IMG/VR virus record: IMGVR_UViG_3300025674_000019
Span: 32,001-96,000 of that record
DNA: 64,000 nucleotides
Origin: a virus
Direction: 5' to 3' (one strand)
The position numbers and the translations under genes are program-made. Shown here piece after piece: positions 30,669 to 60,353 of this stretch (its first letter is position 1; each line of letters opens with the position of its first letter). A model generated the notes under the pieces. It was not told the DNA's origin and ran no database searches. It was given only the letters and a program-made list of their open reading frames with translations.

Positions 30669-31151
30669 TTACTCCTCAGAAGAGTTAACTCTACTCATAA
30701 TCTCTAGGTCCTCTGCGCTAAGAGAAGCTCTTAGGATCTTATGTAAGGCCTCCGAGTGGGGGCCTGGAACCTCCGGTTCCTGCGTCCACGCTAGCGGAGC
30801 GTCCTGAGCCTTTAATACTGGCTCTAAGTCTGGCTCTAAGCCTGTATCTAATATCTCAGGAAGAAAGTCCTCGGTATCCAGAGGAGTATCTTCCTCAGGT
30901 GTACTTTCCGGAATCCTTGCCGCGGATAATACGCCTGGGTTGAACTCACGTAATGCGATGTAGATGAGCGTACGTATAACCAGGCTAGGAGTGACCTTAA
31001 AGTCAGACTCTAACGCCAACGCATCGGCTAGGTTACCCAGTTCTTCGCGCTGAGCGCGGGTTAATCGAAAAGAAGTGACGGTAATATCGCCGTGGGCCGT
31101 AAGTTTAAGCTGTCGGTCCATATCTAACAATAGTTTTCTGGTTATCTTCAA
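30669..31151 (-). CDS. ribbon-helix-helix DNA-binding protein with an acidic tail
   Basis: TVTSFRLTRAQREELGNLA...TPSLVIRTLIYIAL strand-helix-helix pattern; TTG start with GGAGG RBS. Confidence 0.6.
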   Translation of the reverse strand: MKITRKLLLDMDRQLKLTAHGDITVTSFRLTRAQREELGNLADALALESDFKVTPSLVIRTLIYIALREFNPGVLSAARIPESTPEEDTPLDTEDFLPEILDTGLEPDLEPVLKAQDAPLAWTQEPEVPGPHSEALHKILRASLSAEDLEIMSRVNSSEE

Positions 31152-31259
31152 GGCTAGGAGCCTCCTCTCTCGTTTTGCATTATTGCAGTACTTTAAGTAG
31201 CAATATCAGATTGTATTATGTGTAGTTTAGCATACTTAAGTCTAAAATACAAAAGTTCA

Positions 31260-32100
31260 GTGTCGATACTTTCCGGAAAATAGATGTTCAGTAGTAAAAT
31301 GCATTACGTAATGCATTTTTGCTACATCTAGGTTACACACACATGTAACTAAACGTCGTAGACTGTATACAATTTCTGCTACATCTATGTATACTTTCCG
31401 TTTTTCCGTTATACTTTCCGGAAAATAGGTCTGAATAATATCATACACTTAACTGTACTTTCCGTTTTTTCCGCCTATTTTCCGAAATGGATTTCCTTTT
31501 TAATATCATATAGTTACAGCGAAAAATGGCCTACTTTCCGTTTTTTTCGGAAAATACCTATATATAGGTACTGAGCCCTACTTTTTTTTTCACTCGCCAA
31601 AGGGGCCCGTGAGGGGTACTAAAAATAGTTTAATTTTTTTACTTCCTGTATAGGTGTTCAGGTGAGTATATATCGTACTACCTACTGTAATAACCCTTAG
31701 CTTTGGACTTAGGCTTAAGTTTGCATGTAAGGGCAGTAGTTGGACTCCAGAGTATACACAAAGAGTCAACAACTAACTTAAAAAACCAGTAATTCCCTCG
31801 CGCGTAACGTATATATAGGTATATAAGTATTTCCCTGAAAAAGAGGAAAATAGGGTAAAATAGGGGCTAACCCCATAGAATCACTGGGAAAATACTTTCC
31901 GGAAAGTATAAACAGAAAACGGAAAGTAGCCGTAAGTCTATGTAATTGTTAAGATCTATTTTCCGGAAAGTATGGACCAAAAACGGAAAGTATACATAGA
32001 TGTATCTTTTGCTCAGCCTACTTTCCGGAAAGTAGAGCTAAAAAAACGGAAAGTATACATTCCAGTAGCAAAAGCAGCCTTCAACTACTTTCCGTAATAC
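31260..32100. repeat. AT-rich symmetric iteron/palindrome array (candidate replication origin or centromere)
   Basis: Over a dozen TACTTTCCG/CGGAAAGTA half-sites, full palindromes at 31892-31909 and 32018-32035, and a ~53-bp imperfect inverted repeat at 31380-31432 / 31952-32004. Confidence 0.75.
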
Positions 32101-32112
32101 AAAACCCTCGGA

Positions 32113-33183
32113 TCACCTAAATACAACGCTAAGAGTCCGGTTCCGTATGTTGGCCAGCCTGTCACAGTCATATACTGACAGCTCAACCCTGGAGGCTAGC
32201 CCATAGCCTCCAGCCTTCGACCAGATATCAAAGGCGTCCTCCGGATGCGGGTACTCGGTAGCGGTATGCAGTCGGCCTCTTACGACTTCATGCTCGCCCT
32301 CTAGCTTTGGCTCACCGTTGCACAGCAGCTTATCTATTGTCATAGTGAAGACCTCCAGCAGCATGTTCCTCTTATGACGTTCGCTGCCGCCGCCAATCTT
32401 AGAGAAGTCATCTTCAGATATACTGCCGTAGATCAGCTTACTGTAGTAGATAGAGTGAAAGAACTCTGAGCACGTACTTAAGGGTTTCTTCCAAAGTCTA
32501 TCCTCTGAAGGTATATCCTCTACAAACTCCCCGCCCTCTCTGTCGCACATATAGACTTTGATCTTTACGGTGTCAGTCTCTGCGTCCCAGAAAAGATCGG
32601 AGATTGTCTTACGACCCTCTATGTAGCCCACACCCTTATTTACTGTGTAGAGTACGCTTCCATTCGGATATATATGAAAGACGCAGAACCTACTCTCTAG
32701 CTGAGGGAGCGCCTTGAGGCACACAGCTCTGCCGTAGGTATATACCGGAAGTTCATGCATCGGAGTCTCCCGGTAGTAAGGGGACACTGCAGGTACGTAA
32801 TACAGTATGTTTCCGCACGGATCATTAGAGTCCCTCTCATCCAGGTACTCTCCTACGTACTCATCTAGGTCCCACTCGTTACTAGGGTCGAACATAGCGA
32901 TGTACTTAGGGTCGTCCGCAGCAGCCCAACCCGAGTAGATCGGATCTCTTAGCTCAGGCTTCCAGTAGCTTGCTTCCGCAGAGTAGACAGCACTCTTTAC
33001 TGCTTTGATACTACTTCCACCTCTAACGTTATCTCTAGCGATAACTGGCATTCTATTATCTTGAGTAAACGCAAACCCATATAGGCTCGCCATAAAAGGG
33101 CTGAAATCAAATGGTCTTTTCACTGCTAACTCTCCGTATATACTAAAAAAAAAGATCTCTCTAGGTGTAGCGTCCGGTGACAT
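32113..33183 (-). CDS. hypothetical protein (356 aa)
   Basis: Long ORF with no recognisable motif; start codon uncertain. Confidence 0.6.
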   Translation of the reverse strand: MSPDATPREIFFFSIYGELAVKRPFDFSPFMASLYGFAFTQDNRMPVIARDNVRGGSSIKAVKSAVYSAEASYWKPELRDPIYSGWAAADDPKYIAMFDPSNEWDLDEYVGEYLDERDSNDPCGNILYYVPAVSPYYRETPMHELPVYTYGRAVCLKALPQLESRFCVFHIYPNGSVLYTVNKGVGYIEGRKTISDLFWDAETDTVKIKVYMCDREGGEFVEDIPSEDRLWKKPLSTCSEFFHSIYYSKLIYGSISEDDFSKIGGGSERHKRNMLLEVFTMTIDKLLCNGEPKLEGEHEVVRGRLHTATEYPHPEDAFDIWSKAGGYGLASRVELSVYDCDRLANIRNRTLSVVFR

Positions 33184-34184
33184 TCCCAGTCGTGGCGACT
33201 GGGAGATGTTGCCTAGCAGATAGAAAAGTTACGCCTAAGCGTCAGTTTTCTGTCTGAGCAAATGCGCCTGTTAGTACTTATAGCCGGAGTTACCCCGACC
33301 TAGCATCAGAGATCTTCTAAGTGTACGTGTGTACCTGTAGAGGTATTTTCTACGGGTCTCTTTCACTTTACCTAGCGGCGACGTACCTTCGCCATAACTC
33401 AAGATCCTCTAAGCGTAGCTTTCCCTGAGGACAGAGCTCGATTGCGCGAGCTCAGGCCGTAGGGGACGGGGCAACTACTACTCCAGGGTAGTGCCCCGCT
33501 CTGCTACTATACGAGCTTAAACCAGTGGTTGATGTAACCTCAACCTGATTCTCAGGGTTCTCGAATTTAGTTTAGTGGACTGATTTTATCTCAGCAGTAT
33601 TACAACAGAATCCTCTAGATGTAGCTGTTCGTGCCAGGTGGTCGTCTCTACCGACCAAAACCTGGAACAGACGGACATATGTCAATATGTCCGGGTGCCG
33701 AACGTACTGCCAATAACAGAGTGTCTGAAGTAGCTTCAGACTAACCTCAGGATTCTTACATCGCCCTCTAGTTGCTAGGTTTCTTATCCGGCGGTGGACA
33801 CACGGGTCACCCGCCGGATAAGGCATCGTTCTTTCGTCCTCCGAAAAATGATGGAATCCTAACGCCTCGACTATAGCTATAGCTGAAGTGGCTCCAGCCT
33901 AATATCAGGGCGGGTGCCTCTACTTTCTAGCTTAAATTTATTAATGGCTAATTAATAAATTTAGCAAGTAGTGAGCAGAGACCTGCACATTGTATTAGCC
34001 TCGGTGTGCCTCCGAGTTGTACCTCAGGCAGCCGCCTACATGTCTAAGTAGACTAGCATTATATTGCGAGATCTTAGAACGACCTCCAGCAGGGGTAACC
34101 CCTGCCTGCATCGCGGCATAAAGTGGTACTAGCTTTACCGGGACGTGACCCCGGCGGCTCTATTAGTAAGGAGAGCCTGCTAGG
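33180..34184 (+). ncRNA. candidate large structured non-coding RNA A (~970 nt)
   Basis: No credible ORF; many perfect stems, nested helices and end-to-end pairing. G-U wobbles mostly favour the + strand. Confidence 0.55.
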
Positions 34185-34854
34185 TCCCTCCCTCTACTAA
34201 CGAGAGAAGGATCTGCTCCGGGTGGACTACTACTCCGGAAGCAGAGAACTCAAGGGTAAGAGACCGGCCGTCCAGCCCATCGTCCCGAAGGTGATGGTAC
34301 ATGTCCTTGTCGATCTTTCTTCCTCGGTAGAAGTACTCTACCTTTAGCCCAGACAGCGGGTCAAGCTCTGATCGACCGGACCCGGCAACCTCCTCAGAAG
34401 CGGTTCCCTCCAGGCGAGAGATGACGCTATTGCAGGCCTCAACAAGCTTAGGAGTCGCTCCCCACACGTAGGCTCCCATGTAGGTGAGGTACCCCTTCTT
34501 GCTGAGCCAAGAGAAGGCGTGAGTGCCGTCATGGCCAGCCGTCTCATTTCTATGCCTGTGAGAGCTATCGCAGAGAAACTCATCATTCAGCATCGGGAAG
34601 ATCTCATCATCCACGTTCTGCCGGATCTGAGGCCCCATGTACCCTCTAGTACGTAGAAAGGTAGTCGCGCCATTGATCATCTGAATAAGGATACTGGCGA
34701 GACCTGTGGCTGCTGCCCAGGACTGTGTGTTTGTGAACTCGTCACAAATGATATGGGCAATGACCTCTTCTTGTAGGATAGTGGAGTGCTCCTCATTACT
34801 CATATCGACTCTGATACCAGAGTTATTAAGAGATATAGGCTGTGCGTTAGGCAT
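34180..34854 (-). CDS. hypothetical protein, possibly DNA-binding (MPNAQPISL...)
   Basis: GGAGG RBS before the ATG at 34854; the ORF-track extension upstream is probably leader sequence. Confidence 0.6.
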   Translation of the reverse strand: MPNAQPISLNNSGIRVDMSNEEHSTILQEEVIAHIICDEFTNTQSWAAATGLASILIQMINGATTFLRTRGYMGPQIRQNVDDEIFPMLNDEFLCDSSHRHRNETAGHDGTHAFSWLSKKGYLTYMGAYVWGATPKLVEACNSVISRLEGTASEEVAGSGRSELDPLSGLKVEYFYRGRKIDKDMYHHLRDDGLDGRSLTLEFSASGVVVHPEQILLSLVEGGT

Positions 34855-35080
34855 AGCGTTTTTTCCTCCAGCTGGAAGGATATAGGGTATAATCTCCCCT
34901 AGGTATAGTTGGCGGATCCTTCCGCGCGGAGGTTTGCGTAGGAATACGTAGTATTCTCGTAGCAACTCGTAGCTTCGGAGGGAGAGCTGACTGTACTGTG
35001 AAGTCAACGTTCCGGAAAGCTGAGGTAACCTCAGCACTATCTCGGGAGATTGACCTGAGCTAAGGCGCCCAGATCAAATT

Positions 35081-35109
35081 CTTATAACAAATTAATCCTG
35101 ATTTTTGCG
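35081..35109 (-). promoter_or_regulatory. phage bipartite promoter copy
   Basis: CGCAAA-N14-TGT-TATAAG on the minus strand. Confidence 0.65.
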
Positions 35110-35493
35110 CGCAGGCATCTTTGTCTTTGCGCCTACTTTTCTGTAAGCCTCATCAAGCACATCTACTCCGAGGGCAGACGACTTCCAGTAATGGTCCGGT
35201 GCGGTCAGAGCCCAAGCAATCAGGGTAGTTACTCTCTCTACGTACTCAGAGTCCTCAACCATCATATAGTAAGGGACAAGGATCTTCAGGTCCATGCCAT
35301 CACCGTCCTCTGAGTCCCCATAGGTTACAACTAGGTCCTGCTTTGAGACTTGAGCTATGTTTGGGTCTACGGCACCCAATAGCTTTCTAAGGGTCTCTAA
35401 TATCCTAAGAAAGAAAAGTATAACTCTGAACTTAATTACTTTTATTACGCTTTCTTTTTCTGGCACGCCTAGCCTCCTTGTTCCTCTGCTCAT
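35092..35493 (-). CDS. hypothetical protein (start uncertain)
   Basis: ORF within a tightly packed minus-strand operon. Confidence 0.5.
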   Translation of the reverse strand: MSRGTRRLGVPEKESVIKVIKFRVILFFLRILETLRKLLGAVDPNIAQVSKQDLVVTYGDSEDGDGMDLKILVPYYMMVEDSEYVERVTTLIAWALTAPDHYWKSSALGVDVLDEAYRKVGAKTKMPARKNQD

Positions 35494-35794
35494 AGTTCCA
35501 TCTTGCGGACCTTAGCCTGCACTGATCCCCACAGTATTTCCTGCCAGGAGCTTGAGGCAAGTCGCACTTAAAGAAAGAGCACACGGGAACCTCCGTAGGC
35601 TCACATACGGGCTCTGGGAGGGCTTCCTTGGGGGGCTCGGCCACGGGCTCAGGCTCAACGTAAGGGCCTCTGCCTGGGCAACCCAAAAAGAAGCACTCCT
35701 TAAACTTCCTTGGAAATCTAAACTTTTGGAGCTGGTCCCTACAGATCCATTCCTCTCCGTACCAAATGACTTTGCAGGGTGGCTTTGTATTCAT
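35432..35794 (-). CDS. Cys-rich putative zinc-binding protein
   Basis: CFFLGCPG and CSFFKC...YCGDQC; basic tail. Confidence 0.55.
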   Translation of the reverse strand: MNTKPPCKVIWYGEEWICRDQLQKFRFPRKFKECFFLGCPGRGPYVEPEPVAEPPKEALPEPVCEPTEVPVCSFFKCDLPQAPGRKYCGDQCRLRSARWNYEQRNKEARRARKRKRNKSN

Positions 35795-35802
35795 ATGTGT
35801 AC

Positions 35803-36282
35803 CTACTCATAGTGGGGCACCTCTGTATCTTGGTGCTGTCCTGGAGTATCTTCTACCAGAATCTCCATTTCACTTCCCCCCAATACTGAATAGATGTCGC
35901 CCCCGTGCTCGTCCTTCCACTTATTCTTTAGGTATTCTCTAAGCTTAGACTCTGCGCCCTCGGAGTACTCGAAGGGTATTGTATCCCTAAGATGACTAGT
36001 GTTGTACCACCAACCACCTTCTTCAGGCCCTCCGTAGTGGCGAGTAATTGTATATACAGATAGGTATTTTACTTTAGCCTCGCCCGAAGTGCTACAGAGC
36101 GGAGGGTCCTCTTGGTCTAGAACCTCTAGCCCCATCCTATCTTTATACTTATACTCTAAGTAGTTAGTGATCTGAGAGGGGTCATCGTACTCGGCCTCGT
36201 AGGGAATAGCTTCTATTGGGGTCTTACTGCCCTGGGTATTACTGTATGCACATAGGTACCTGATGGCCACTGTTAGCTCCAC
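35803..36282 (-). CDS. hypothetical phage protein
   Basis: YGGPEEGGWWY motif, which is common in phage hypotheticals. Confidence 0.6.
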   Translation of the reverse strand: MELTVAIRYLCAYSNTQGSKTPIEAIPYEAEYDDPSQITNYLEYKYKDRMGLEVLDQEDPPLCSTSGEAKVKYLSVYTITRHYGGPEEGGWWYNTSHLRDTIPFEYSEGAESKLREYLKNKWKDEHGGDIYSVLGGSEMEILVEDTPGQHQDTEVPHYE

Positions 36283-36536
36283 TCTGCTTTGATCTTGCTG
36301 ATCATAATTCTAGTCTCTTCTAGCGCGGCGTACTCCAGGGCACTTGCCATTGTCCCCGGATCTAGAGATAGCTTAATCTCTATTACACCGCAGGGGTACT
36401 GATCCCCATGCTCTTTATGGTGAGCCATGTACTCTTCGGCTTTTTCCCTTGCGTCGAAGTACTTAATAAACCAGAACTTATTGTTCCTATCTACCCTCAG
36501 CCTGTAGAGCCTTTGAGCTTCAGTTGCCACCAGCAA
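36273..36536 (-). CDS. hypothetical protein
   Basis: Coupled ORF. Confidence 0.5.
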   Translation of the reverse strand: MLVATEAQRLYRLRVDRNNKFWFIKYFDAREKAEEYMAHHKEHGDQYPCGVIEIKLSLDPGTMASALEYAALEETRIMISKIKAEWS

Positions 36537-36792
36537 CCTTCTCTAGGTAGCGCATGAAGCTTATCCAGCCGTATGCCGATATGTCAGGGCTGGCATCTTT
36601 AAGAAGAAGGGAAGTGTAGAACTCTTCCTTAACCTCCTTCTTACCGATGATAGACCGCTGAGACTTATCCCAGAGCTTTTTGAAGTCCCCGTAAGTGTAG
36701 GCGGCGTTCCTGCAGGCAATCAGCAGGCATATCTCGGCGGGAGTGAAACCTTCTAGATCTACAGCCCACTCAGGCATGTCACTCCTCTTCAT
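36520..36792 (-). CDS. hypothetical protein
   Basis: Coupled ORF. Confidence 0.55.
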   Translation of the reverse strand: MKRSDMPEWAVDLEGFTPAEICLLIACRNAAYTYGDFKKLWDKSQRSIIGKKEVKEEFYTSLLLKDASPDISAYGWISFMRYLEKVAGGN

Positions 36793-36967
36793 TTCTAGAA
36801 CTGATCACGCCGTCCATAAACGATACAAAGGCTGCCTTTACTTGAGCATCTGTCCTCAGTAATTCTGCACCAATCTTACGAGTGAGCTCTAGCTCCGCCT
36901 TGATGTAGTGCTCAGGCGGAAGCTTCTCTTGGCTTTCTTTACTACGAGTACTTTCGTCTATAGCCAT
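36779..36967 (-). CDS. hypothetical protein (MAIDESTRSKE...)
   Basis: GGAG RBS at the ATG at 36967; the upstream part of the ORF-track call belongs to other genes. Confidence 0.55.
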   Translation of the reverse strand: MAIDESTRSKESQEKLPPEHYIKAELELTRKIGAELLRTDAQVKAAFVSFMDGVISSRNEEE

Positions 36968-36980
36968 ATTTATTCTCCAG

Positions 36981-37073
36981 CTAATATAAGTAAAGCAGAG
37001 TTGCAGCAGCTCCCAAGAGCACTGCAAAAAGAACACAGCTGCCGTACATAGCGACTTTGTATACTGTTTCCAT
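36981..37073 (-). CDS. small membrane peptide (METVYKVAMYG..., 30 aa)
   Basis: AAGGAG RBS; hydrophobic. Confidence 0.5.
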   Translation of the reverse strand: METVYKVAMYGSCVLFAVLLGAAATLLYLY

Positions 37074-37092
37074 GGGAAGGGCTCCTTATCTG

Positions 37093-37260
37093 TCAAAGGG
37101 CCAAGCAGTACATGAGGGAAATTCTTAGTGTAAGATAGACCACCGCATAAAACAATGTTGTAACCAACATATCCGATAGGCCTGTGTACACACTGATGTA
37201 CGCATACGCGTAGCAGGTAACAAAGAGGGCGATAACGCCTGCGAGCACCATGCCGAACAT
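37093..37260 (-). CDS. small two-TM membrane protein (MFGMVLAGVIAL..., 55 aa)
   Basis: AAGGAGGAG RBS; hydrophobic. Confidence 0.55.
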   Translation of the reverse strand: MFGMVLAGVIALFVTCYAYAYISVYTGLSDMLVTTLFYAVVYLTLRISLMYCLAL

Positions 37261-37369
37261 GCACTCCTCCTTTAAGCGTAAAGTAGTTGCGGCTGACTGT
37301 TACTCTTCTATGAGCACGCCACCAGCCTGTACGATTTGAGCTGCTTCTTCACACCGTAGGCAACTATAC

Positions 37370-37441
37370 TGGGCCGCCCGGGACTCGAACCCGGAACCAA
37401 TGGATTAAAAGTCCACTGCTCTACCATTGAGCTAGCAGCCC
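37370..37441 (-). tRNA. tRNA-Lys(UUU)
   Basis: Cloverleaf GGGCTGC...TTT...GGTTCGAGTCC; CCA not encoded. Confidence 0.93.
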
Positions 37442-37464
37442 ATGCGCCCCTAGCGGGGCGCTGA

Positions 37465-38889
37465 CTAAAAGTCGTCTGTCAGCAAGACGTAGGAACTATA
37501 CGCTGTTAGGGCCGACAATGCTAGGGTCGTTATACCAAGAATCTTATGGCCAGTAGGATATCTCTCCCCCCAGGTGGACAAGCCTCCATGCACAGAAAGA
37601 TCCCCTGTGTTTAGGCAGAGGTTACCTTCTTGCTTATAGTCACGACCACAATCTCTGTAGTACTCACCCGCCAACCAGTTGCCCGCAGCTACCAAAGAGA
37701 GCAGGCCCCCTAGAACTACAACAGGGTAGTTCCACTCCCCGGGCGCTTCACTGTAGTCCACCAGGCCCCTCGTTACGGCTATTCGGCCCGGCTCTACTTC
37801 GGAGTACCTATCGTATGAGCTAAGAGTGTGGATACCCAAGCCATCCTTAAGCACGTGAGTGTAGCCCCAGCCTGGAAGAGAGTCCTGTAGATATTCTCTT
37901 AGAGAATGCAGCTCAGCTTCTCTACTAGCCACCTCTCGAGTTTTCTCCGCTATGGCGGGAGACTCTACGTCTATACCGTAGGCCTCTATCTCTTCATCAA
38001 GGTACTCTTGATATCCGAATAGCTGTAGGTGCTCTAGGACTGCAGCCTTCAGAGTAGCCCCGGACACGCTATCGAAGCCCTGTACCTCTCGCAGCGCGGC
38101 TAGGTGTGATTCTCTGCCGATAGGCTCAACCCTGGGAGAGTTAAGTATCTCAAGAAATCTACTATACTTCCTAGAGTAGTCCCTCAGGTACAGCTTGTAG
38201 TGCTGTACTTTACGCAGGGCGAGATCAGAGTAGTCTGGGTACTGAATTAAATTGTCCCATAACCTGAGGCGCTCGCTAGCGCTTATACTCGGGTCAGAGT
38301 CAGATTGGGTAGCGTTCTCCAGAGCTCTCATAGCCTCCAGGTCCATAGACCGAGAAGCCCTTAGCTCTGCTACTCTAGTTGCATCAAGTAATAACCCTTC
38401 TCTTCCCTGGCGAGAGAAGCTAACAGGCGCCTCCCCTTCCCTGGTAGTAGCGTTTAGCTTCAGAAAGAAAGCGAGCCTTCTAGACAGCTCACCAGTGTTA
38501 CCTATAGAAGAAGACTCGCTGAAGACACTTGTGCCTTCTAGTGATCTAAAAACCTCTAAAGATAACCTTCCAGCTAAAAGCCTGCCTGCCACTACCCAGT
38601 CTGCCCCGACAGTTCTGCCTATATTTACAGAGCACATGTCGGAGCAGTCTTCTAGCTCAGTGCCTTCAGGCAGCAAAGCCTCTACGTTCTCACTACTGAG
38701 AGTCCTATAGGCGGCAGGGTCCGAGATAGTCCTGCGCACTTGCCCAGTGAGATCTATCGCAGCAGTATCTCCCTGTATATTTAGAACTAGTACACGTGGA
38801 AGGCTAGAGGACCTCTCTACTGGCTTGGGCCCTGCGCCACAGCCAAGCAGAAAAGATAAACTAGTAATGCCTACGAATAAGTATCGCAA
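37465..38889 (-). CDS. putative lipoprotein with a TolB-N/CsgG-like domain and C-terminal TM segments
   Basis: Lipobox-like FLLGC; LEDCSDMCSVNIGRTVGADWVVAG motif; probable TTG start. Confidence 0.55.
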   Translation of the reverse strand: MRYLFVGITSLSFLLGCGAGPKPVERSSSLPRVLVLNIQGDTAAIDLTGQVRRTISDPAAYRTLSSENVEALLPEGTELEDCSDMCSVNIGRTVGADWVVAGRLLAGRLSLEVFRSLEGTSVFSESSSIGNTGELSRRLAFFLKLNATTREGEAPVSFSRQGREGLLLDATRVAELRASRSMDLEAMRALENATQSDSDPSISASERLRLWDNLIQYPDYSDLALRKVQHYKLYLRDYSRKYSRFLEILNSPRVEPIGRESHLAALREVQGFDSVSGATLKAAVLEHLQLFGYQEYLDEEIEAYGIDVESPAIAEKTREVASREAELHSLREYLQDSLPGWGYTHVLKDGLGIHTLSSYDRYSEVEPGRIAVTRGLVDYSEAPGEWNYPVVVLGGLLSLVAAGNWLAGEYYRDCGRDYKQEGNLCLNTGDLSVHGGLSTWGERYPTGHKILGITTLALSALTAYSSYVLLTDDF

Positions 38890-39049
38890 AGCCAAGCAAC
38901 AAGAACCAGCCAATGCCCGTCCACCCTGCAAAGATATTAAGCAGGAAGATACCGGGGGTACGGCGCAGCTTACGGGAGCTAGCGATTATACTCGGTAGGA
39001 AGTAGGCTACAGTTATACCAAAGCCGATTACTAGAGCTTCAACGCTCAT
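38861..39049 (-). CDS. superinfection immunity protein (T4 Imm family)
   Basis: YFLPSIIA..R.....IFLLNIFAGWTGIGW signature. Confidence 0.85.
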   Translation of the reverse strand: MSVEALVIGFGITVAYFLPSIIASSRKLRRTPGIFLLNIFAGWTGIGWFLLLGFAILIRRHY

Positions 39050-39200
39050 CGCGCTTATTCCTCAATTGCTTGAGTGCCCACTTCGGAGGGTTCTTCATAA
39101 GATAAACCTTTTGAAGAAACTCCAAAGGATCTTTATATTCTGACTGGTTACTCCAGTTGCTTAGTACTTCAGGGTGCAACCCTTTGTGCGTCTCTTTCAT
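39039..39200 (-). CDS. small hypothetical protein (MKETHKGLHPE..., 53 aa)
   Basis: AAGGAGG RBS. Confidence 0.5.
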   Translation of the reverse strand: MKETHKGLHPEVLSNWSNQSEYKDPLEFLQKVYLMKNPPKWALKQLRNKRDER

Positions 39201-39223
39201 AGTTCCTCCTTTGAAGAGACAAG

Positions 39224-39297
39224 CGTACCAGGCAGGGCTCGAACCTGCGACCCTCGGCTTAGGAGGCCGATGCTCTATCCATCTGAGCTACTGGTAC
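39224..39297 (-). tRNA. tRNA-Arg(CCU)
   Basis: Cloverleaf with anticodon loop CT-CCT-AA. Confidence 0.92.
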
Positions 39298-39356
39298 CTA
39301 TGTCCGGGTTTACCGGACTGAGGGCACTTAGTCCAGAACTTCTACTAGCTCAAGAC

Positions 39357-39557
39357 TTACTCCTCCGTATACCCATCGAACCAAGGCCCAAACCTCTTAG
39401 TTCTACGCACAGCCTCAGGACTGGTAGCTGTGCGGCTACTTGTCTCTGGGTCCCTGCAGTGAGCCTGAGCTTCTTCCTCAGTGAGCCCTGTCTGCCCGTA
39501 GTCTCTACGAGAAGAGTCCCTGTAGAAGCGAACTATTTTATAAGTCGCCACTACCAT
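39357..39557 (-). CDS. hypothetical phage protein
   Basis: YKIVRFY...TGLTEEEAQAHCRDPETSS...WFDGY pattern. Confidence 0.6.
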   Translation of the reverse strand: MVVATYKIVRFYRDSSRRDYGQTGLTEEEAQAHCRDPETSSRTATSPEAVRRTKRFGPWFDGYTEE

Positions 39558-39795
39558 ACCCGCTCTTAGGCCCACGCACATGATCGAGCATAGCTTCCCA
39601 GTCCTCAGCAAATGTCACTAAGTCTGATAGATAGTTCTCTTGAACCATCTTATACGAATTCCTAGGGGACACCCTAGGCTCCTTACCCTGAGACTGCTCC
39701 ATAAGCTTGGAGAACTCTTCGTAGCTAAGTCCAGCTTTAGCGCAGATCAACTGAAGCGCTCTTTCTGCCGGAGTATAGTTTCGACCTCTAGCCAT
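39538..39795 (-). CDS. hypothetical protein
   Basis: 85-aa ORF within the operon. Confidence 0.5.
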   Translation of the reverse strand: MARGRNYTPAERALQLICAKAGLSYEEFSKLMEQSQGKEPRVSPRNSYKMVQENYLSDLVTFAEDWEAMLDHVRGPKSGYGSGDL

Positions 39796-39869
39796 AACAC
39801 ACGATACCCGTGCTTTTGTAGCATCTACTGCTTTCGTTGTTCATGCTTTACCTCCATGAACAGAGTGAG

Positions 39870-39943
39870 TACTCGGAGTGGGACTTGAACCCACGACCCC
39901 CGGTATGTAAGACCGGTGCTCTAACCAACTGAGCTACCCGAGT
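39870..39943 (-). tRNA. tRNA-Val(UAC)
   Basis: Cloverleaf with anticodon arm CCGGT-CTTACAT-ACCGG. Confidence 0.9.
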
Positions 39944-40003
39944 ATAGATTCCCCACCTCAATGGAGCTTAGTGCAGTAATATTAATAAACGAGGCGGGGA
40001 AAG

Positions 40004-40076
40004 TGCTGGAAGAGGGACTTGAACCCCCGGCCGGCTGATTACAAATCAGCAGCTCTACCAACTGAGCTATTCCAGC
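40004..40076 (-). tRNA. tRNA-Thr(UGU)
   Basis: Cloverleaf with anticodon TGT. Confidence 0.92.
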
Positions 40077-40194
40077 TTAGGTCCCGCAGTACTAGGCTAC
40101 CCTGCGGAGCGGTAATGGGCAAAAGGAGGAAAATCCCAAGACCCTTTGGCTTAAACTGCTCACCACAAACAATATGCACCTCCGAATCGCCTAC

Positions 40195-40276
40195 TGCCCC
40201 GGGCCGGACTCGAACCGGCACGCCTCTCGGCGGGAGATTTTAAGTCTCCTGTGTCTACCGGTTCCACCACCAGGGC
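40195..40276 (-). tRNA. tRNA-Leu(UAA)
   Basis: Type II cloverleaf with a long variable arm; anticodon TAA. Confidence 0.92.
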
Positions 40277-40315
40277 ATATCCTTCCTTTCCTAGTATCAA
40301 TGGCGTATATGCGCG

Positions 40316-40507
40316 TCAACACATTTCTGCAAGCCAAGACTCTCCTGAGGGAGTAACTCGCCAAGTGGCATCGCCCATAGTAACAATGGCGTAGGTTTCT
40401 GAAGGCTTCGATACTACTTTGAAGCCCCACTTGTTATCTTTAGAGTCTTTCGTAAGAAACTCGACGCCCTTAAGGACGATATCTACATTCTTTCTTCTAT
40501 TTTTCAT
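40316..40507 (-). CDS. hypothetical protein
   Basis: Coupled ORF. Confidence 0.5.
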   Translation of the reverse strand: MKNRRKNVDIVLKGVEFLTKDSKDNKWGFKVVSKPSETYAIVTMGDATWRVTPSGESWLAEMC

Positions 40508-41057
40508 CTATATCCTTTGGCCACCAATAAGGAGGCTCCGCGTTAGTCCAAGTGGCAAACTTAGCTTTGTCTGCTACGTAGAACTTCCTATAAGACCCCA
40601 CAGGGTCACTAGGATCTTTAAGATGCTCAAGCTCAGGCCCGAATGCTAGATAAGGGGGCGTAACCTTATCCTGCCTAGGGAACAAGCACCTTCCCTCTAA
40701 CCTAAGCCCTAGAGCAAACCTAAAGGCCAACTTAGCTACGCGGTAACTCTTATGCTGAGTACCGAATCTAAGCCTCTGCTGGCTACTCATGCCTATAGAA
40801 TGCCTGTAAGCCCATTTAAAATTAGGCCAGCTCTCTCCTACCCAGATCGTGCACCCATGCTTATGGTGTGCCGTCTTATAGAGGAACTTAAGCCCCTCTG
40901 GGAGCTGCTCTCTAGGGACGTTTATTAGCCCCATGCGCATCCTTACAGCTGTACACAGCATTTGAGCTGTCTCTAGCTGCATTAAAGTGACGTGTTGATC
41001 GCACAACCACCCTGCTGCTTTGAGAGGATTATGGTCCAGATAAAATACGTTCAACAT
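40497..41057 (-). CDS. pyrimidine-dimer DNA glycosylase/endonuclease V-like protein, copy 2
   Basis: NVFYLD...CDQHV...ETAQML, YKTAH, YRKFY...K...ATW...PYWW. Confidence 0.7.
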   Translation of the reverse strand: MLNVFYLDHNPLKAAGWLCDQHVTLMQLETAQMLCTAVRMRMGLINVPREQLPEGLKFLYKTAHHKHGCTIWVGESWPNFKWAYRHSIGMSSQQRLRFGTQHKSYRVAKLAFRFALGLRLEGRCLFPRQDKVTPPYLAFGPELEHLKDPSDPVGSYRKFYVADKAKFATWTNAEPPYWWPKDIDEK

Positions 41058-41602
41058 TTTTCTTTAGGCCACCAGGGTGGCGGCTCAGAGTTAGTCCAGG
41101 TGGCAAACTTAGCTTTGTCTGCTATGTAGAACCTCCTGTATGACCCCGCCGGGTCCATCGGGTTCTTTAGGTGCTCTAGTGCTGGACCGAATGCCATATA
41201 GGGAGGAGTAGTAGTCATAGACTCAGGGAGAATAAAGTTATGCTCCTTTCTCTCTTTATGCAGGAACAACCAAGCATCCTTAGCGACCCGAAAGCTTTTA
41301 TGCCTCGTACCAAATCGCTGCTTGTGTTGCGCGTGCATTTGAATAACGTGCATAAACAGCCATTGAAAGTTACTAAAGCACTCTCCCACCCATTTAGTAC
41401 TGCCGTGCTTAGGATGAGCCGTCTTGTAGAGAAACTTAAGCTCGTCGGGAAGCTCTTCTCTTGGAGTATCCTCCAGGCTCATGTGAACTCTAATAGCCGT
41501 ACACATCATCTGTGCAGACTCTAGAATCATCTTAGAGACATGTTGATCACACAGCCAAGTAGCGGCTATAACTGGGTCGTCATCAAGGTAGAATACGTTC
41601 AC
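41051..41602 (-). CDS. pyrimidine-dimer DNA glycosylase/endonuclease V-like protein, copy 1
   Basis: MNVFYLDDDP...CDQHVSKMILESAQM; paralogue of the adjacent gene. Confidence 0.72.
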   Translation of the reverse strand: MNVFYLDDDPVIAATWLCDQHVSKMILESAQMMCTAIRVHMSLEDTPREELPDELKFLYKTAHPKHGSTKWVGECFSNFQWLFMHVIQMHAQHKQRFGTRHKSFRVAKDAWLFLHKERKEHNFILPESMTTTPPYMAFGPALEHLKNPMDPAGSYRRFYIADKAKFATWTNSEPPPWWPKEKC

Positions 41603-41967
41603 TAGAACTTCTTGAGAACTCGGTGCACTTCGTAGTAGCTAAGGGCTCCGCGCTCTTCTATATCTGTGATTTCGTCTCCCAGACGTATAAACTGGTAAGA
41701 CGTGTCCAGGCCTTGAGAGTCTAGCCATCTAAGGTAGTAGACTACTCTGTCTATCTTAGGATTGTCACAGAACTCGTACCACCTGGTATTCACAGAGGAG
41801 AACTCAACCAACTCTTCTTCCTCTTGCATGGTACAAAAGACGAACTTAAGCGTGTCAAGGATAGAGTCTTTACCCTCTCCTGTAACCCAAAGCTCATACT
41901 CTTCAGTCTTTCTAGAAAGCTCTTCGCTAGTAGAGAAGACCAGGGTAACATCGCTTCTATAGCTCAT
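41602..41967 (-). CDS. hypothetical phage protein
   Basis: MSYRSDV...FIRLGDEITDIEERG pattern. Confidence 0.6.
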   Translation of the reverse strand: MSYRSDVTLVFSTSEELSRKTEEYELWVTGEGKDSILDTLKFVFCTMQEEEELVEFSSVNTRWYEFCDNPKIDRVVYYLRWLDSQGLDTSYQFIRLGDEITDIEERGALSYYEVHRVLKKF

Positions 41968-41972
41968 CTAAA

Positions 41973-42054
41973 TGCCCAGGGAGGGAATCGAACCCTCACG
42001 CCCGAAGGCACAGGAACCTAAATCCTGCGCGTCTACCAATTCCGCCACCTGGGC
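41973..42054 (-). tRNA. tRNA-Leu(UAG)
   Basis: Type II cloverleaf; anticodon TAG. Confidence 0.92.
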
Positions 42055-42167
42055 AGGCCCAAGCACATTGGCAGCTTTGACTCTAAAGGTCAATAGGCTC
42101 GTATAGAGCTTCTTATAATAGAGTTCAGCATAGCACATGCTCATCTCCTAAAAGACATTAGCAAAAG

Positions 42168-44515: not shown

Positions 44516-44516
44516 G
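44487..44516 (+). promoter_or_regulatory. phage bipartite promoter copy upstream of ncRNA B
   Basis: CGCAAA-N15-TGG-CATAAG. Confidence 0.65.
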
Positions 44517-44521
44517 TATAT

Positions 44522-45160
44522 GAGTGAAGCATTTATGTAGTGTAGCGGCCTACCGGTTGCGCATGGACTTCACTTTTGCTGTGCTGCGAAGCATAGCGCG
44601 ACGGCCACACCTGCAGCAGATTCGTCTGTGGCGTTCAGCAGGGAAAAGCTCAGAGGTCTGCCGAAGACTATCTACCTGGGCTGGGGCTTGGTATCCCTAT
44701 TTAACAAAATTACCAGGCGGTGCGCTGAGGAGTGCACTGGAGCTTGACGTAGTCACGTAAAGCTATAGCCTGGCAGCTTCGGCTGTCAGCAGTTCGAGAG
44801 GACTGAGCGGGGGAGAGGGTCTCGCTGCAAAACAAAAGACACTCTACGATCAGCTTAAGTGACATTTGCTGAGCGTTTTCCAGTGTAGTGGTGCGGCACT
44901 CACAATGGATAAGTAATGGGAAAACTTCGGGCTCGTCCCGGAGTTCCGTGCAATAGGCGAAAGCCTACCCACGTCGGGGACAATAACAAGCAAAACCGGC
45001 GGCTAGAAGAGAAAGGTGCGCACCTTATATAGGGCAATCCGAATATCTTAGCAGAGCCTCGGCAGGCCATTGGTAACTGTCGGGTAGATGCCTCTCGGTG
45101 GAGGCTGCTCTAAAGGAAGGTTGAAGCGCTAAGAACTGGCTCACTTTGGTGGGTCTTTCT
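44522..45160 (+). ncRNA. candidate large structured non-coding RNA B (~640 nt)
   Basis: Has its own promoter and terminator, UUCG/GNRA-capped hairpins and long-range helices; no credible ORF. Confidence 0.7.
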
Positions 45161-45175
45161 CTGACGCGTGGAGGC

Positions 45176-45302: not shown

Positions 45303-45887
45303 ATGTCTGACTATCTTTTTAGTGGGTACTTTAATAATCAGAATCTACTAAGCGGGTCCGCTACGGGACTCTTCGACAACCGACACCTCCAGGACCTCCT
45401 GGAGGAGGGCCTAGAGCCCACGGAGGTTGACTGGGGAGGGGACTCCCGTCGCTGCTGGGCCTGGTGCCCAGAGGAGGTAGCCACTAGAAATCCAGGCTTC
45501 GGAAGACCAGTAAGATGGCGCAGGGGCCGCGGAGCCCCAGAAGCAATCACTTTCGGAGGGGCGGTGTTTACCTCCCGCGAGTGGAAGAAAAGCACAGTCG
45601 CGAGGAGGAGAGCCGGTGCGCGCTCAAGAAAGTGGGAGGAGCCTCAGCAGAGGCCCTCGTTCACTTTTCTGCTGCGCAGGCGCGCAGAGGAAAAGAGCTG
45701 TAGTGTAGCCAAGCTACTACTCCAGCAACTGCGCATAGAAAGGCTGACCCACCTGCCGCGGTGGGACGGGGGGCTAGAGCCTCTCCGGAAGGCTATTATG
45801 GCCGCCGAGTGGCAAGGGCTGCCATACGGCCACAGCTTCCAGAGTTTCTGGGAGTGGTGGGCAGTCCACATCCACCCCAGGCTCTAG
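45303..45887 (+). CDS. hypothetical protein
   Basis: GAGGAG RBS at the ATG at 45303. Confidence 0.6.
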   Translation: MSDYLFSGYFNNQNLLSGSATGLFDNRHLQDLLEEGLEPTEVDWGGDSRRCWAWCPEEVATRNPGFGRPVRWRRGRGAPEAITFGGAVFTSREWKKSTVARRRAGARSRKWEEPQQRPSFTFLLRRRAEEKSCSVAKLLLQQLRIERLTHLPRWDGGLEPLRKAIMAAEWQGLPYGHSFQSFWEWWAVHIHPRL

Positions 45888-45926
45888 GCCCGGGGCGGGG
45901 CCTGAACCCGCTCTCGGAGCCCTGCC

Positions 45927-45991
45927 CTTTTTTAGCTCTTACATCCGATGATAGACGCAAAACAGGGGTAGCAAATTGGCATAAGTATATG
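45927..45991 (+). repeat. cassette boundary module with promoter
   Basis: TTTTTTAGCTCTTACATCCGATGATAGACGCAAAACAGGGGTAGCAAATTGGCATAAG. Confidence 0.75.
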
Positions 45992-46027: not shown

Positions 46028-46561
46028 GTGCTGAATTTCTTCAAGAACCTCTTTCGCCCTGCCCTCCCTCCCGTCACCTCCGGGAACATTCTCTACGGGG
46101 ATTTCCCCGGGTACAAGACCTGGTTCTGTTCTAACGAGATTCCGGTCGAGATCGGGGAGCGCGTTCACGCGATCACCAACCACCGCTGCGACGAGCTCTC
46201 GCTGGAGAGCGAGGCGCTGGCGGCGAGGGACGCAGGGCAGCCCCTGGTTCCAGTAACCCTCAAGACCCCTCGCGGGGACCTACGAGGATTCTGCTGGCAC
46301 CACTCAGGCTGTAACGGCCGCGACAGCATCGCGGCCCTACTGACCTTCGGGTCAGTCGAGGACCTTCTCGTTCAGATCGCGGAGCGAAAGCTCCTCAATC
46401 ATTTCGAGTGGGAGGGCAAGCTGTATTCAATCACTTCAAGCGATTGGACCCAAGAGCACGTCGTGCGGGCCGCGAGGCCTCTCACCGACCGAGAGCGGCG
46501 GAAGCCCACTGAGGCGGAAGCGGAGCTGGTGTGGGACGTGAGCTACACGAGGAGCATGTAA
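46028..46561 (+). CDS. hypothetical protein
   Basis: AAGGAG RBS at the GTG at 46028; GC-rich codon usage. Confidence 0.6.
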   Translation: MLNFFKNLFRPALPPVTSGNILYGDFPGYKTWFCSNEIPVEIGERVHAITNHRCDELSLESEALAARDAGQPLVPVTLKTPRGDLRGFCWHHSGCNGRDSIAALLTFGSVEDLLVQIAERKLLNHFEWEGKLYSITSSDWTQEHVVRAARPLTDRERRKPTEAEAELVWDVSYTRSM

Positions 46562-46563
46562 TA

Positions 46564-46683
46564 ATGTTAGGGACGTGGATCTTTTTGGGGTGGAGCTTCG
46601 CCGTCTACTGGCGTCTCTACGAAATGTTCAACCAGCTCCGTAAGGGGGAGCGCGAGTGGAAGGAGAGAGAAAATGAGATTTAA
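46564..46683 (+). CDS. small membrane peptide (MLGTWIFLGW..., 39 aa)
   Basis: GAGGAG upstream; fills the gap in the operon. Confidence 0.45.
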   Translation: MLGTWIFLGWSFAVYWRLYEMFNQLRKGEREWKERENEI

Positions 46684-46855
46684 AGAGTGGCTCCGTAAAA
46701 CGGGATTAAAGGCAGGCATCGTTTGCCTGCTGTGCGTAATCTTATGCCGACTCCTAGGGAGCACAGCGATGGGGAGCCTGCTATCTGGCGGGTGGCTATT
46801 CGGAAGCATCTATTTTATCGATGATTACTTCTATAGAATTAAGGAGAATGGGTAA
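46673..46855 (+). CDS. small membrane protein
   Basis: AAGGAG RBS; hydrophobic. Confidence 0.5.
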   Translation: MRFKEWLRKTGLKAGIVCLLCVILCRLLGSTAMGSLLSGGWLFGSIYFIDDYFYRIKENG

Positions 46856-46935
46856 TGATTGCGTATGTACTGATTAAGATTATTGTCGGCGTTAGCCTCC
46901 TCGTCGGAGGACTCATTATTGCCGACAAGCTCTAA
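46855..46935 (+). CDS. small TM peptide (MIAYVLIKIIVG..., 26 aa)
   Basis: TAATG coupling; AAGGAG RBS. Confidence 0.45.
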   Translation: MIAYVLIKIIVGVSLLVGGLIIADKL

Positions 46936-46954
46936 AAACCCACAACCACCCAAC

Positions 46955-47040
46955 AAAGAAAAGCCTAAGGAACTTTTCTTTTAGCTATGACGCCTGACGA
47001 TAGACGCAAAACAGGGGTAGCAAAATGGCATAAGTATATG
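46955..47040 (+). repeat. terminator hairpin + cassette boundary module + promoter
   Basis: AAAGAAAAGCCTAAGGAACTTTTCTTTTAGCT...GATAGACGCAAAACAGGGGTAGCAAAATGGCATAAG. Confidence 0.75.
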
Positions 47041-47093
47041 ATCCGGGGAATTTCTCCCCGAAAAGACCCGGGGATAACCCCGGAGAAAGGGTA

Positions 47094-59606: not shown

Positions 59607-60098
59607 ATGCGCCAGTCTGATGCAGACTACCTTACTATGCTCAGCGCTATTGCTGACTACGTCAGAAGTAATCCTCAAGACTATTACAATACCCAGAAGA
59701 TCGCAGGGTATATCCGTAGCGTGATGGGTGAGGAGAAACTTCCAAAGGAAAGAAGCGGAAGGATCTTCTCCGAGCTCTACGCTCGTAAAATATTCACTAG
59801 GAACAAGTATATGACTAGCGGAAAGCTGAAGAGCTACTTGGTCTATGTAGACCTCCGCAGTATCGAAAGGACTCTTGCACTTGCAGAAGAGAGCCCCGTA
59901 AAAGAGGCCAAGAAGGCTGTAAGGTCAGAGATTAGAGTATCTTACACTCTAGGGGGAGAGCCCGTTTCGGCTGAGTTCTATAAAAAGTTCTCAAGTCGAT
60001 TTACAGAAGAAGAGAAAGGTGCTAGCTACACCTTTAGAGGATCTAGCATCCCCGGAGGCCTCAACGCCCTTATTGAGTCTGTTCTTGAAGCCGACTAG
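59607..60098 (+). CDS. hypothetical protein, possible winged-helix DNA-binding protein
   Basis: AGGAGG RBS; helix-helix-helix-wing-like N-terminus. Confidence 0.55.
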   Translation: MRQSDADYLTMLSAIADYVRSNPQDYYNTQKIAGYIRSVMGEEKLPKERSGRIFSELYARKIFTRNKYMTSGKLKSYLVYVDLRSIERTLALAEESPVKEAKKAVRSEIRVSYTLGGEPVSAEFYKKFSSRFTEEEKGASYTFRGSSIPGGLNALIESVLEAD

Positions 60099-60115
60099 AT
60101 AAGGAGGCCTTCCTT

Positions 60116-60188
60116 GGGCTTGTAGCTCAGTGGTCAGAGCGACCGTCTCATAAACGGTTGGTCGTGGGTTCAATCCCCACCGAGCCCA
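60116..60188 (+). tRNA. tRNA with CAU anticodon (Ile2 or elongator Met)
   Basis: Cloverleaf GGGCTTG...CTCATAA...CGAGCCCA; lacks initiator features. Confidence 0.9.
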
Positions 60189-60353
60189 TTATTTTTTTAG
60201 ATCAGAGTACTTATCGTATTTTCCGTAGTCTTTGTCTTTTACCCAAGAGGGCAGAGGGAACTCTTCATCCTTTTTTTTAGCTTCCTTCTCAAAGCTTCCC
60301 TTGATGTCTTTATCGTAGTCAACGTACTTATCATCTGTTCCGTATTTAACCAC
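60189..60353 (-). CDS. small charged hypothetical protein
   Basis: GGAG RBS at the GTG at 60353, coupled to the upstream gene. Confidence 0.45.
   Translation of the reverse strand: MVKYGTDDKYVDYDKDIKGSFEKEAKKKDEEFPLPSWVKDKDYGKYDKYSDLKK

Follow-up and report, generated by a model that had tools for sequence, protein, structure and literature searches.

The window analysed here, a stretch of 64,000 nucleotides (nt) given as positions 32001–96000 of IMG/VR record IMGVR_UViG_3300025674_000019, covers bases 23568–87567 of a 97.8-kilobase (kb) linear virus sequence, which is estimated to be 61 % complete and comes from a divergent tailed phage of aquatic metagenomes. Two of its minus-strand genes are separated by a gene-free gap, 33124–34179, which holds a highly structured element of about 1 kb. 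The element most likely represents a new family of large modular phage RNA, analogous in context to the GOLLD and ROOL RNAs and a member of neither. The gap and its borders contain the following features, in coordinates of the window.

32113–33123, minus strand: gene for a protein of 336 amino acids (aa; P0003), with a GTG start at 33123 and an extent taken from homologues of 282–354 aa
33141–34179, minus strand: the candidate RNA element in full, about 1,039 nt; it begins right behind the stop codon of the 224-aa gene and extends to the last base of a run of uridines (U-run), 18 nt ahead of the GTG of the 336-aa gene
34180–34854, minus strand: gene for a 224-aa protein (P0001), with an extent taken from homologues of 220–248 aa

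A preliminary description of this region had placed a structured element without a credible gene at 33180–34184. The absence of a credible gene is borne out, and with gene ends supported by homologues the true gap proves slightly larger. The largest open reading frame (ORF) in the gap would encode 84 aa (33572–33826, minus strand) and is an orphan, matching only itself among 5.8 billion proteins. Comparison of the gap in six frames with the equivalent region of a relative, contig L003, reveals no conserved peptide (best match 16 aa, E 0.015). The check on folding that had been proposed, against dinucleotide shuffles of both strands (20 per strand), bore out the expectation. Region 33184–34179 folds at −379.0 kcal/mol on the minus strand (shuffles −309.1 ± 8.2, z-score −8.50) and at −371.2 kcal/mol on the plus strand (shuffles −310.4 ± 8.9, z −6.87), and on neither strand was any shuffle as good. 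In a sliding scan of 200-nt windows, with 12–15 shuffles per window, those in the gap reach z −8.2, −6.4 and −7.2, while adjacent coding windows (32134–33133) range from +1.1 to −2.4 and 151 background windows average −1.0 ± 1.4 on the plus strand and −0.85 ± 1.3 on the minus strand. The folding is more than chance, which confirms the original observation. Within the 97.8-kb record the region is single-copy, a self-search returning only the region itself and its own 40-nt inverted arm.

L003, a 4,082-nt metagenome contig, is the only informative relative found in searches of viral contigs, genome contigs and annotated phage records, collections in which the lineage is rare. It encodes a homologue of the 336-aa protein (48 % identical) at 705–1751, preceded in the same orientation by 704 nt without a conserved ORF, where the contig is cut off. 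This region folds with z −8.48 (sense) and −8.40 (antisense), again with none of 20 shuffles as good. The window and L003 share the same order of features: the structured region, then the 336-aa gene, the iteron array and the 160-aa gene. Nucleotide similarity of the two structured regions is confined to a few patches of 34–70 nt. The sequence has decayed but the folding excess is equal in both phages, which is a signature of selection on structure. No relatives were obtained by blastn of the region or tblastn of the 336-aa family (P0006) against annotated phage records, and no further relative was found among viral contigs with the flank proteins, with a 709-aa protein, in family alignments, among genome contigs or by DNA patterns. 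A DNA-pattern match, L004, lies inside a coding region, has no stem and was set aside as chance. The homologue search suggested at the outset has therefore provided one relative with a structured region, but only two independent sequences, too few for R-scape.

The comparison also bears on whether the gap is non-functional DNA, either a decayed gene or selfish palindromic repeats that fold well by accident. The family is very small, as might be expected on that account. It is nevertheless highly improbable, since a relative keeps position, orientation, folding excess and specific motifs even though its flank protein is only 48 % identical, and since there are compensatory changes, no other copy in the record and no conserved peptide.

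Read on the minus strand, the element is a chain of junction modules, of which the terminal module is the best defined.

33150–33317, minus strand: terminal module, a four-way junction closed by helix P1
33305–33313/33150–33158, minus strand: P1, long-range closing helix (p at least 0.7)
33275–33303, minus strand: P2, triloop hairpin with conserved flanks, CUAGG-[GUCGGGG UAA CUCCGGC]-UAUAAGUA
33211–33259, minus strand: hairpin P3
33184–33204, minus strand: hairpin P4
33141–33149, minus strand: terminator-like run of nine U (U9) directly after the 3' strand of P1, followed by the Shine–Dalgarno (SD) sequence GGAGAG and the GTG at 33123

In the partition function, P1 is extended to 10 base pairs (bp; 33308–33317/33151–33160). 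It encloses P2, in the form CUAGG, 7-bp triloop hairpin and CUAUAAGUA, then a linker, ACAGGYGC, and hairpins P3 and P4. Two terminal-type modules are present in L003 (350–524 and 508–686), and the P2 motif occurs there twice (381–410 and 536–565). The L003 counterparts of P3 and P4 (584–621 and 626–655) occupy the same places between conserved linkers and are unrelated in sequence. The U-run is also conserved, with U9 in the window and U8 in L003, each right after its own P1 and followed by a ribosome-binding site and GTG.

P1 and P2 were examined in an unedited MAFFT alignment of the terminal module of the window with the two L003 modules. All 24 cells of P1 pair, and four of its eight pairs are changed on both sides; for P2 the figures are again 24 of 24 cells, with two of eight pairs changed on both sides. 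Taken together (48/48 cells, 6/16 double changes), these values are reached by at most 1 of 500 column shuffles. When the 3' partners were slid by 1–3 columns as a control, 35–57 % of cells paired and double changes fell to 0. RNAalifold over-fits on the raw two-sequence MAFFT alignment, and only helices verified by reading were used. It is established that the element folds better than chance, that this excess is conserved in the relative, that particular helices carry compensatory changes and that coding potential is lacking; the element is real, conserved, non-coding and structured over about 1 kb.

Triloop hairpins like that of P2 recur along the element, and one lies beyond it.

33723–33741, minus strand: triloop hairpin GUCUGAAG-CUA-CUUCAGAC
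33882–33898, minus strand: triloop hairpin GCUGGAG-CCA-CUUCAGC, with flanks UUAGG and CUAUAGCUAUAG and with G.U on the minus strand only
34089–34105, minus strand: triloop hairpin GCAGGGG-UUA-CCCCUGC
35019–35035, minus strand: triloop hairpin GCUGAGG-UUA-CCUCAGC, outside the main element and identical to L003 384–400

Seven triloop hairpins of 7–8 bp, four from the window and three from L003, share the form G-Y-N-G-R-R-G / YYA (or UAA) / C-Y-Y-C-N-R-C. In their alignment 55 of 56 cells pair, a proportion that is partly circular as the members were picked as hairpins, and five of eight pairs are changed on both sides; two pairs and the A of the loop are invariant. More informative are the positions that covary around fixed ones, and the ten G.U cells, against which no A.C stands on the minus strand. 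The G.U pairs of P2 likewise exist on the minus strand only. The L003 orthologue of the hairpin at 33723–33741 (106–122, GUCGAAG-CUA-CUUCGAC) is one bp shorter and has the same loop and a downstream UGUUAU, and 33878–33911 forms a blastn patch with L003 371–404. The copy at 35019–35035 lies upstream of the 224-aa gene in a 237-nt gap, 34855–35091, which folds with z −3.75 against 200 shuffles, contains repeated GCUACGAG motifs and is hidden if a 285-aa ORF is taken at face value. Over both strands of the 97.8-kb record, the strict 7-bp pattern has seven matches: four on the minus strand (all within 33283–35035), two on the plus strand that are all-Watson–Crick copies seen reversed, and one that is unrelated.

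A middle module is partly conserved in the relative.

33396–33626, minus strand: middle module, with helices at p of at least 0.7, partly conserved in L003 243–361
33606–33626 and 33398–33420, minus strand: junction motifs AGCUAC-N-UAGAGGAU of the middle module
33559–33567/33396–33404, minus strand: middle-module helix
33503–33507/33415–33419, minus strand: middle-module helix GUAGC/GCUAC
33527–33545, 33467–33498 and 33434–33453, minus strand: middle-module hairpins

L003 243–361 keeps the GAGCUCG...CGAGCUC stem, the block CCUCAGG-N3-4-AGCUAC-N-UAGAGGAU and the GUAGC/GCUAC helix. A junction motif, (G)CUAC-N-UAGAG-GAUYC, occurs about nine times in the element of the window and five times in L003, and supplies strands of the helices that close modules. 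Motifs of the GCTAC-N-TAGAG type are not consistently placed upstream of other genes or tRNAs, and the motif was rejected as a phage-wide promoter. The order and number of modules differ between the two phages; for example, a full module of L003 corresponds in place to a shorter one of the window that lacks P2. It thus seems that modules are duplicated, decay and are shuffled as the element evolves.

The rest of the element consists of hairpins and shorter helices, extending to the 5' end.

33634–33665, minus strand: nested pair of hairpins
33672–33693, minus strand: hairpin of 9 bp
33783–33822, minus strand: 12-bp hairpin with a variable apical part
33916–33982, minus strand: 9-bp helix (33974–33982/33916–33924) enclosing a 13-bp A/U hairpin (33933–33963)
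34137–34155 and 34156–34177, minus strand: two 5'-terminal hairpins, just past the stop codon of the upstream gene

Several of these structures include stems that had been quoted in the preliminary description. When the sequence was read, all the quoted stems were found at the positions given for them or a few bases away, as follows.

33783–33794/33811–33822: stem of 12 bp
33672–33680/33685–33693: stem of 9 bp
33933–33945/33951–33963: stem of 13 bp
33434–33440/33447–33453 and 33467–33473/33492–33498: stems
33723–33730/33734–33741 and 34089–34095/34099–34105: stems

The end pairings described with them are likewise present, 33212–33219 with 34177–34184 and 33315–33321 with 34073–34079.

Variation among near-identical strains was compared with the minus-strand minimum free energy (MFE) structure, by alignment of contigs from four runs to 32400–34900. 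Among the variants listed, 16 lie inside the element and nine of these are at unpaired positions, including 33948, 33949, 33972 and 33983; position 34166 is in a loop. In the X4 and X5 contigs, 34094 G>A occurs together with 34100 C>T, a compensatory change of both sides of one pair. The variants at 34056 and 34104 become G.U on the minus strand only, that at 34104 being G>A in X4 and X5. A variant at 34058 breaks a weak 3-bp stem, and one at 33786 lies in the 12-bp stem, its partner being unseen among the listed variants. X4 also lacks five bases of the apical part of the 12-bp hairpin, at 33801 and 33803, and one base of the U/A-run at 33141–33149 is missing in the X4 and X5 contigs. These variants, though small in number, fit structure-preserving evolution. 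Among those listed they look scarce at 33020–33708, from which no difference in density can be claimed.

With regard to the strand, local hairpins were sought in a strand-symmetric scan with the same tolerance for G.T as for A.C. At internal positions on the gene-sense (minus) strand there are 16 G.T against 5 A.C (12:4 in the window and 4:1 in L003). The ratio is 10:6 at basal positions and 1:5 on the loop side, and one counted 'hairpin', with three G.T, is the U-run itself. In the preliminary description the plus strand was held to be favoured by most wobble pairs; counted symmetrically, they favour the minus strand or, by one measure, neither. The minus strand is favoured because of this wobble bias, the U-run after P1 and the uniformly minus-strand operon in which the element lies, all neighbouring genes from 30669 to 37264 being on that strand. 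Long-range compensatory helices indicate a single-stranded molecule rather than duplex DNA, the simplest choice being RNA, as transcription of the operon must include the region unless a terminator intervenes. We infer that the folding molecule is RNA of the minus strand, ending at the U-run. The reading of 33141–34179 as a modular, highly structured non-coding RNA (ncRNA) of about 1.0 kb, on the minus strand and probably co-transcribed with the flanking genes, is given a little better than an even chance.

A number of observations weigh against this reading. Whole MFE structures do not tell the strands apart (−399.1 vs −396.3 kcal/mol), nor do G.U pairs (35 vs 36) or wobbles next to shared pairs (7 vs 8) on the two strands of the window; in L003 the corresponding counts are 14 vs 15 and 5 vs 7. 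The wobbles of some variable hairpins, for example 33225–33262 and L003 462–492, fit the antisense strand only, and with variant 33935 A>G the minus strand has C.A and the plus strand alone has G.U. The 24 listed runs with the stretch include none that is recorded as RNA. No promoter was found, the seven sigma-70-like sites comparing with 6.2 ± 2.7 expected. A canonical terminator was not found either; an intrinsic terminator has a G+C-rich hairpin of short loop with a U-run directly behind it. P1 (9–10 bp) followed directly by U8–9 just upstream of a gene, in both phages, resembles a Rho-independent terminator or attenuator, but about 140 nt with three hairpins separate the strands of P1, which is not a textbook arrangement, and a consensus terminator scan (loop 3–8) did not report it. 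As module order and number differ between the phages, no single consensus structure can be drawn. With two independent sequences and near-identical strains no R-scape-type statistic is possible, and the helices tested were derived from the same sequences used to test them.

Some of these points would suit a large ncRNA of the plus strand, antisense to the flanking genes, as was originally proposed. That strand also folds far better than its shuffles, and the pair at 33935 and the five internal A.C positions fit it. The wobble counts of 16:5 and 10:0 and variants 34056 and 34104, which keep their pairs on the minus strand only, point the other way, and a plus-strand element would start with A9 and converge with the long minus-strand operon. 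A plus-strand RNA thus appears very unlikely. What is supported of the giant ncRNA originally proposed is a structured, non-coding element of about 1 kb, probably a large ncRNA, that belongs to no known family; its plus-strand, antisense placement is not supported.

The equality of the two strands in whole-structure energies and wobble counts is also what would be expected if the element acted as DNA, an alternative already raised in the preliminary description, with hairpins extruded from single-stranded DNA of either strand and a role in replication or packaging together with the nearby iteron array. Most stems are perfect Watson–Crick inverted repeats, and the array (31152–32112) is only one gene away, a linkage conserved in L003. 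Folds with DNA parameters (−193.6 kcal/mol for the minus strand and −196.6 for the plus strand, without shuffle controls) are uninformative. Compensatory changes in helices that span about 150–170 nt would be unexpected for cruciforms, however, and the hairpin sequences vary while pairing is kept, which does not suggest conserved protein-binding palindromes. In addition, the U-run after P1 has no obvious role in DNA, and the wobble bias (16:5 and 10:0) points to one strand, although this could be one DNA strand. We regard a DNA-level element as distinctly improbable.

The main alternative is that the minus-strand transcript is a long cis-acting intergenic leader or spacer. For the 336-aa gene and those downstream, it would govern read-through (with P1 and the U-run as attenuator), processing, stability or translation. 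This suggestion is supported by P1 and the U-run beside the start codon, in an arrangement conserved in L003, and by a predicted 8-bp end-to-end helix (p at least 0.7) that pairs 34170–34177 with 33128–33135 and would cover the SD sequence GGAGAG of the 336-aa gene. The element lies between two co-directional genes and has no detectable promoter of its own, and the leader of the 224-aa gene, too, has a copy of the triloop hairpin. However, the end-to-end helix is in competition with a local hairpin, 34156–34177, and L003 lacks the 5' end concerned. Moreover, 1 kb of ornate modular structure far exceeds the needs of known attenuators and leaders. A cis-acting leader is considered unlikely.

For the structured ncRNA favoured here, membership of known families was examined with Rfam covariance models, a search that had also been proposed and that found no known family. 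Over the whole window at gathering scores, only the seven tRNA genes were reported. At E ≤ 10 with permissive filters, 32900–34500 gave three chance-level matches, none of them GOLLD (the best was 5S, E 0.56, with 19.5 bits against a threshold of 38), and L003 1–760 at E ≤ 10 gave four chance-level matches only. With no Rfam match in the window or L003, the element was rejected as a member of a curated GOLLD, ROOL, intron, riboswitch or ribozyme family. A self-splicing group I or group II intron is contradicted by the lack of an intron-model match at E ≤ 10, and an intron that splits one gene by the flank proteins, which form two separate families, each with full-length stand-alone homologues.

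The covariance models of GOLLD (conserved 3' domain) and ROOL thus have no match here. The location in a phage or prophage, often by tRNA genes, that characterizes GOLLD is shared by the element, which is in a virus record and has six of the seven tRNA genes of the window at 37369–42055, the nearest about 3.2 kb away. GOLLD and ROOL are found in phages near tRNA islands (PMC12286853), and the element, like them, is encoded by a phage, falls in the range from several hundred to about 1,000 nt, is extremely structured and sits near a tRNA island. Its architecture differs: similar junction modules follow one another, with a triloop hairpin that recurs, in place of one conserved core. A keyword search of full texts returned known work on GOLLD, ROOL and OLE and phage transcriptome papers and no description of a like element, although such a search cannot prove it unpublished.

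Two other systems with hairpins invite comparison. Decoy small RNAs of the CsrB/RsmZ type carry one hairpin motif, with GGA loops, repeated on one RNA. The repeated hairpin of the element similarly suggests multivalent binding, and motifs containing GAGG or GGA recur in it; by eye, GAGG occurs 12 times in 1,056 nt of the sense strand, in many cases inside helices. The element differs in being about three times longer, and the 7-bp triloop hairpin that it repeats has YYA rather than GGA in the loop. Promoters of the N4 type, which are used by a phage single-subunit RNA polymerase, are hairpins with short stems and 3-nt loops upstream of early genes. By contrast, four of the five triloop hairpins here lie in the 1-kb gap and the fifth in the next gap upstream, not before many genes. 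PF00940 has no match in the 97.8-kb record, a weak negative as the record is 61 % complete and control genomes gave no match, and no RNA polymerase domain was found in the six largest proteins scanned.

The structured ncRNA would consist of multi-helix junction domains in a chain, each closed by a long-range helix built from recurring junction motifs, AGAUYYCU / AGRRAUCU and GCUAC-N-UAGAGGAU. Several domains would present the 7-bp triloop hairpin, and the last closing helix, followed by the terminator-like U8–9, would end the structure just before the ribosome-binding site of the next gene. Such an RNA may be stand-alone or processed and multivalent, with its hairpin modules offering scaffold or decoy contacts for protein or self-assembly. 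That the repeated modules form a multivalent scaffold or decoy is suggested, faintly, by analogy with the discussion of GOLLD and ROOL in PMC12286853. It is a tentative possibility that the element is the first representative of a distinct class of giant phage RNA, a chain of four-way-junction modules that each bear a 7-bp YYA-triloop hairpin and together form a multivalent platform. If so, it could sequester many copies of host or phage proteins or self-assemble into a higher-order RNA particle, and its building principle, which would evolve by duplication and shuffling of modules, would be unlike that of GOLLD, ROOL or OLE. These three are described as forming unprecedented RNA-only assemblies (PMC12286853).

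Very few large ornate RNAs are known from bacteria and phages. The set would be enlarged by another family, about 1 kb long and unrelated to the rest, here in a lineage whose proteins are mostly without matches. With a single hairpin motif, a single closing helix and a defined 3' end, the repeated-module design lends itself to simple experiments, and one may ask what advantage a multivalent RNA next to a putative origin and a tRNA island would bring to a phage. The stretch, whole or in part, from this phage or near-identical relatives, is present in runs of 18 studies of aquatic, freshwater, brackish, seawater and salt-marsh metagenomes. Among about 20 large proteins scanned, matches to known families were limited to ribonucleotide reductase, a baseplate wedge protein and a few domain fragments. 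The flank proteins of 336 and 224 aa belong to no Pfam or PHROG family, a search of a protein atlas for the context of neighbouring proteins gave no result, and an AlphaFold model of the 336-aa protein is unusable (predicted local distance difference test, pLDDT, 40).

Downstream of the 336-aa gene lies the A+T-rich gap 31152–32112 (G+C 0.36), which is full of palindromic TACTTTCCGGAAAGTA-type iterons. There are at least six copies, several of them spaced 62–64 nt, and TACTTTCCGTTTTT half-sites are also present. L003 has an array of TATTTTCCGGAAAATA-type palindromes in the same place, at 1800–2690, downstream of its 336-aa homologue. From their sequence, both arrays look like an origin or operator array. 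The structured element itself was rejected as an iteron-type origin, since the conserved direct repeats fill this neighbouring gap and not 33141–34179, where repeats are structural and vary in sequence. The next gene is also conserved.

30669–31151, minus strand: gene for a 160-aa protein, just past the iteron array, with an L003 homologue at 2692–3210

The 160-aa protein is 69 % identical between the window and L003, above the 48 % of the 336-aa protein. Neither Pfam nor PHROG has a match for it, and it is a candidate for binding the iterons.

Sequences similar to the junction motif were noted at two other places. In the iteron gap, GCTACATCTAG and GCTACATCTAT (31321–31331 and 31378–31388, plus strand) have 10–11 bases in common with the minus-strand junction motif at 33615–33625, which may be chance. 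At 60024–60044 (plus strand), AGCTACACCTTTAGAGGATCT is close to the junction motif; it lies inside the end of ORF 59607–60098, about 70 nt upstream of tRNA-Met (60115–60189), and the other six tRNAs have no such motif upstream.

Further strong folding windows were detected at 44634–44833 (plus strand, z −7.3), 45534–45933 (plus strand, z −4.3 to −5.1) and 46234–46433 (minus strand, z −7.65). They lie in or around the gaps 44516–45167 and 46562–47093 and may correspond to an 'RNA B' named in the preliminary description. The strict 7-bp triloop pattern has no match there; other module motifs were not sought. Finally, a minus-strand ORF of 2,344 aa (52473–59507) has weak HNH/endonuclease VII matches at its N-terminus, a PAP2 match around residue 1,100 and, around residue 2,100, an FMN-reductase/flavodoxin-like domain, an odd combination.

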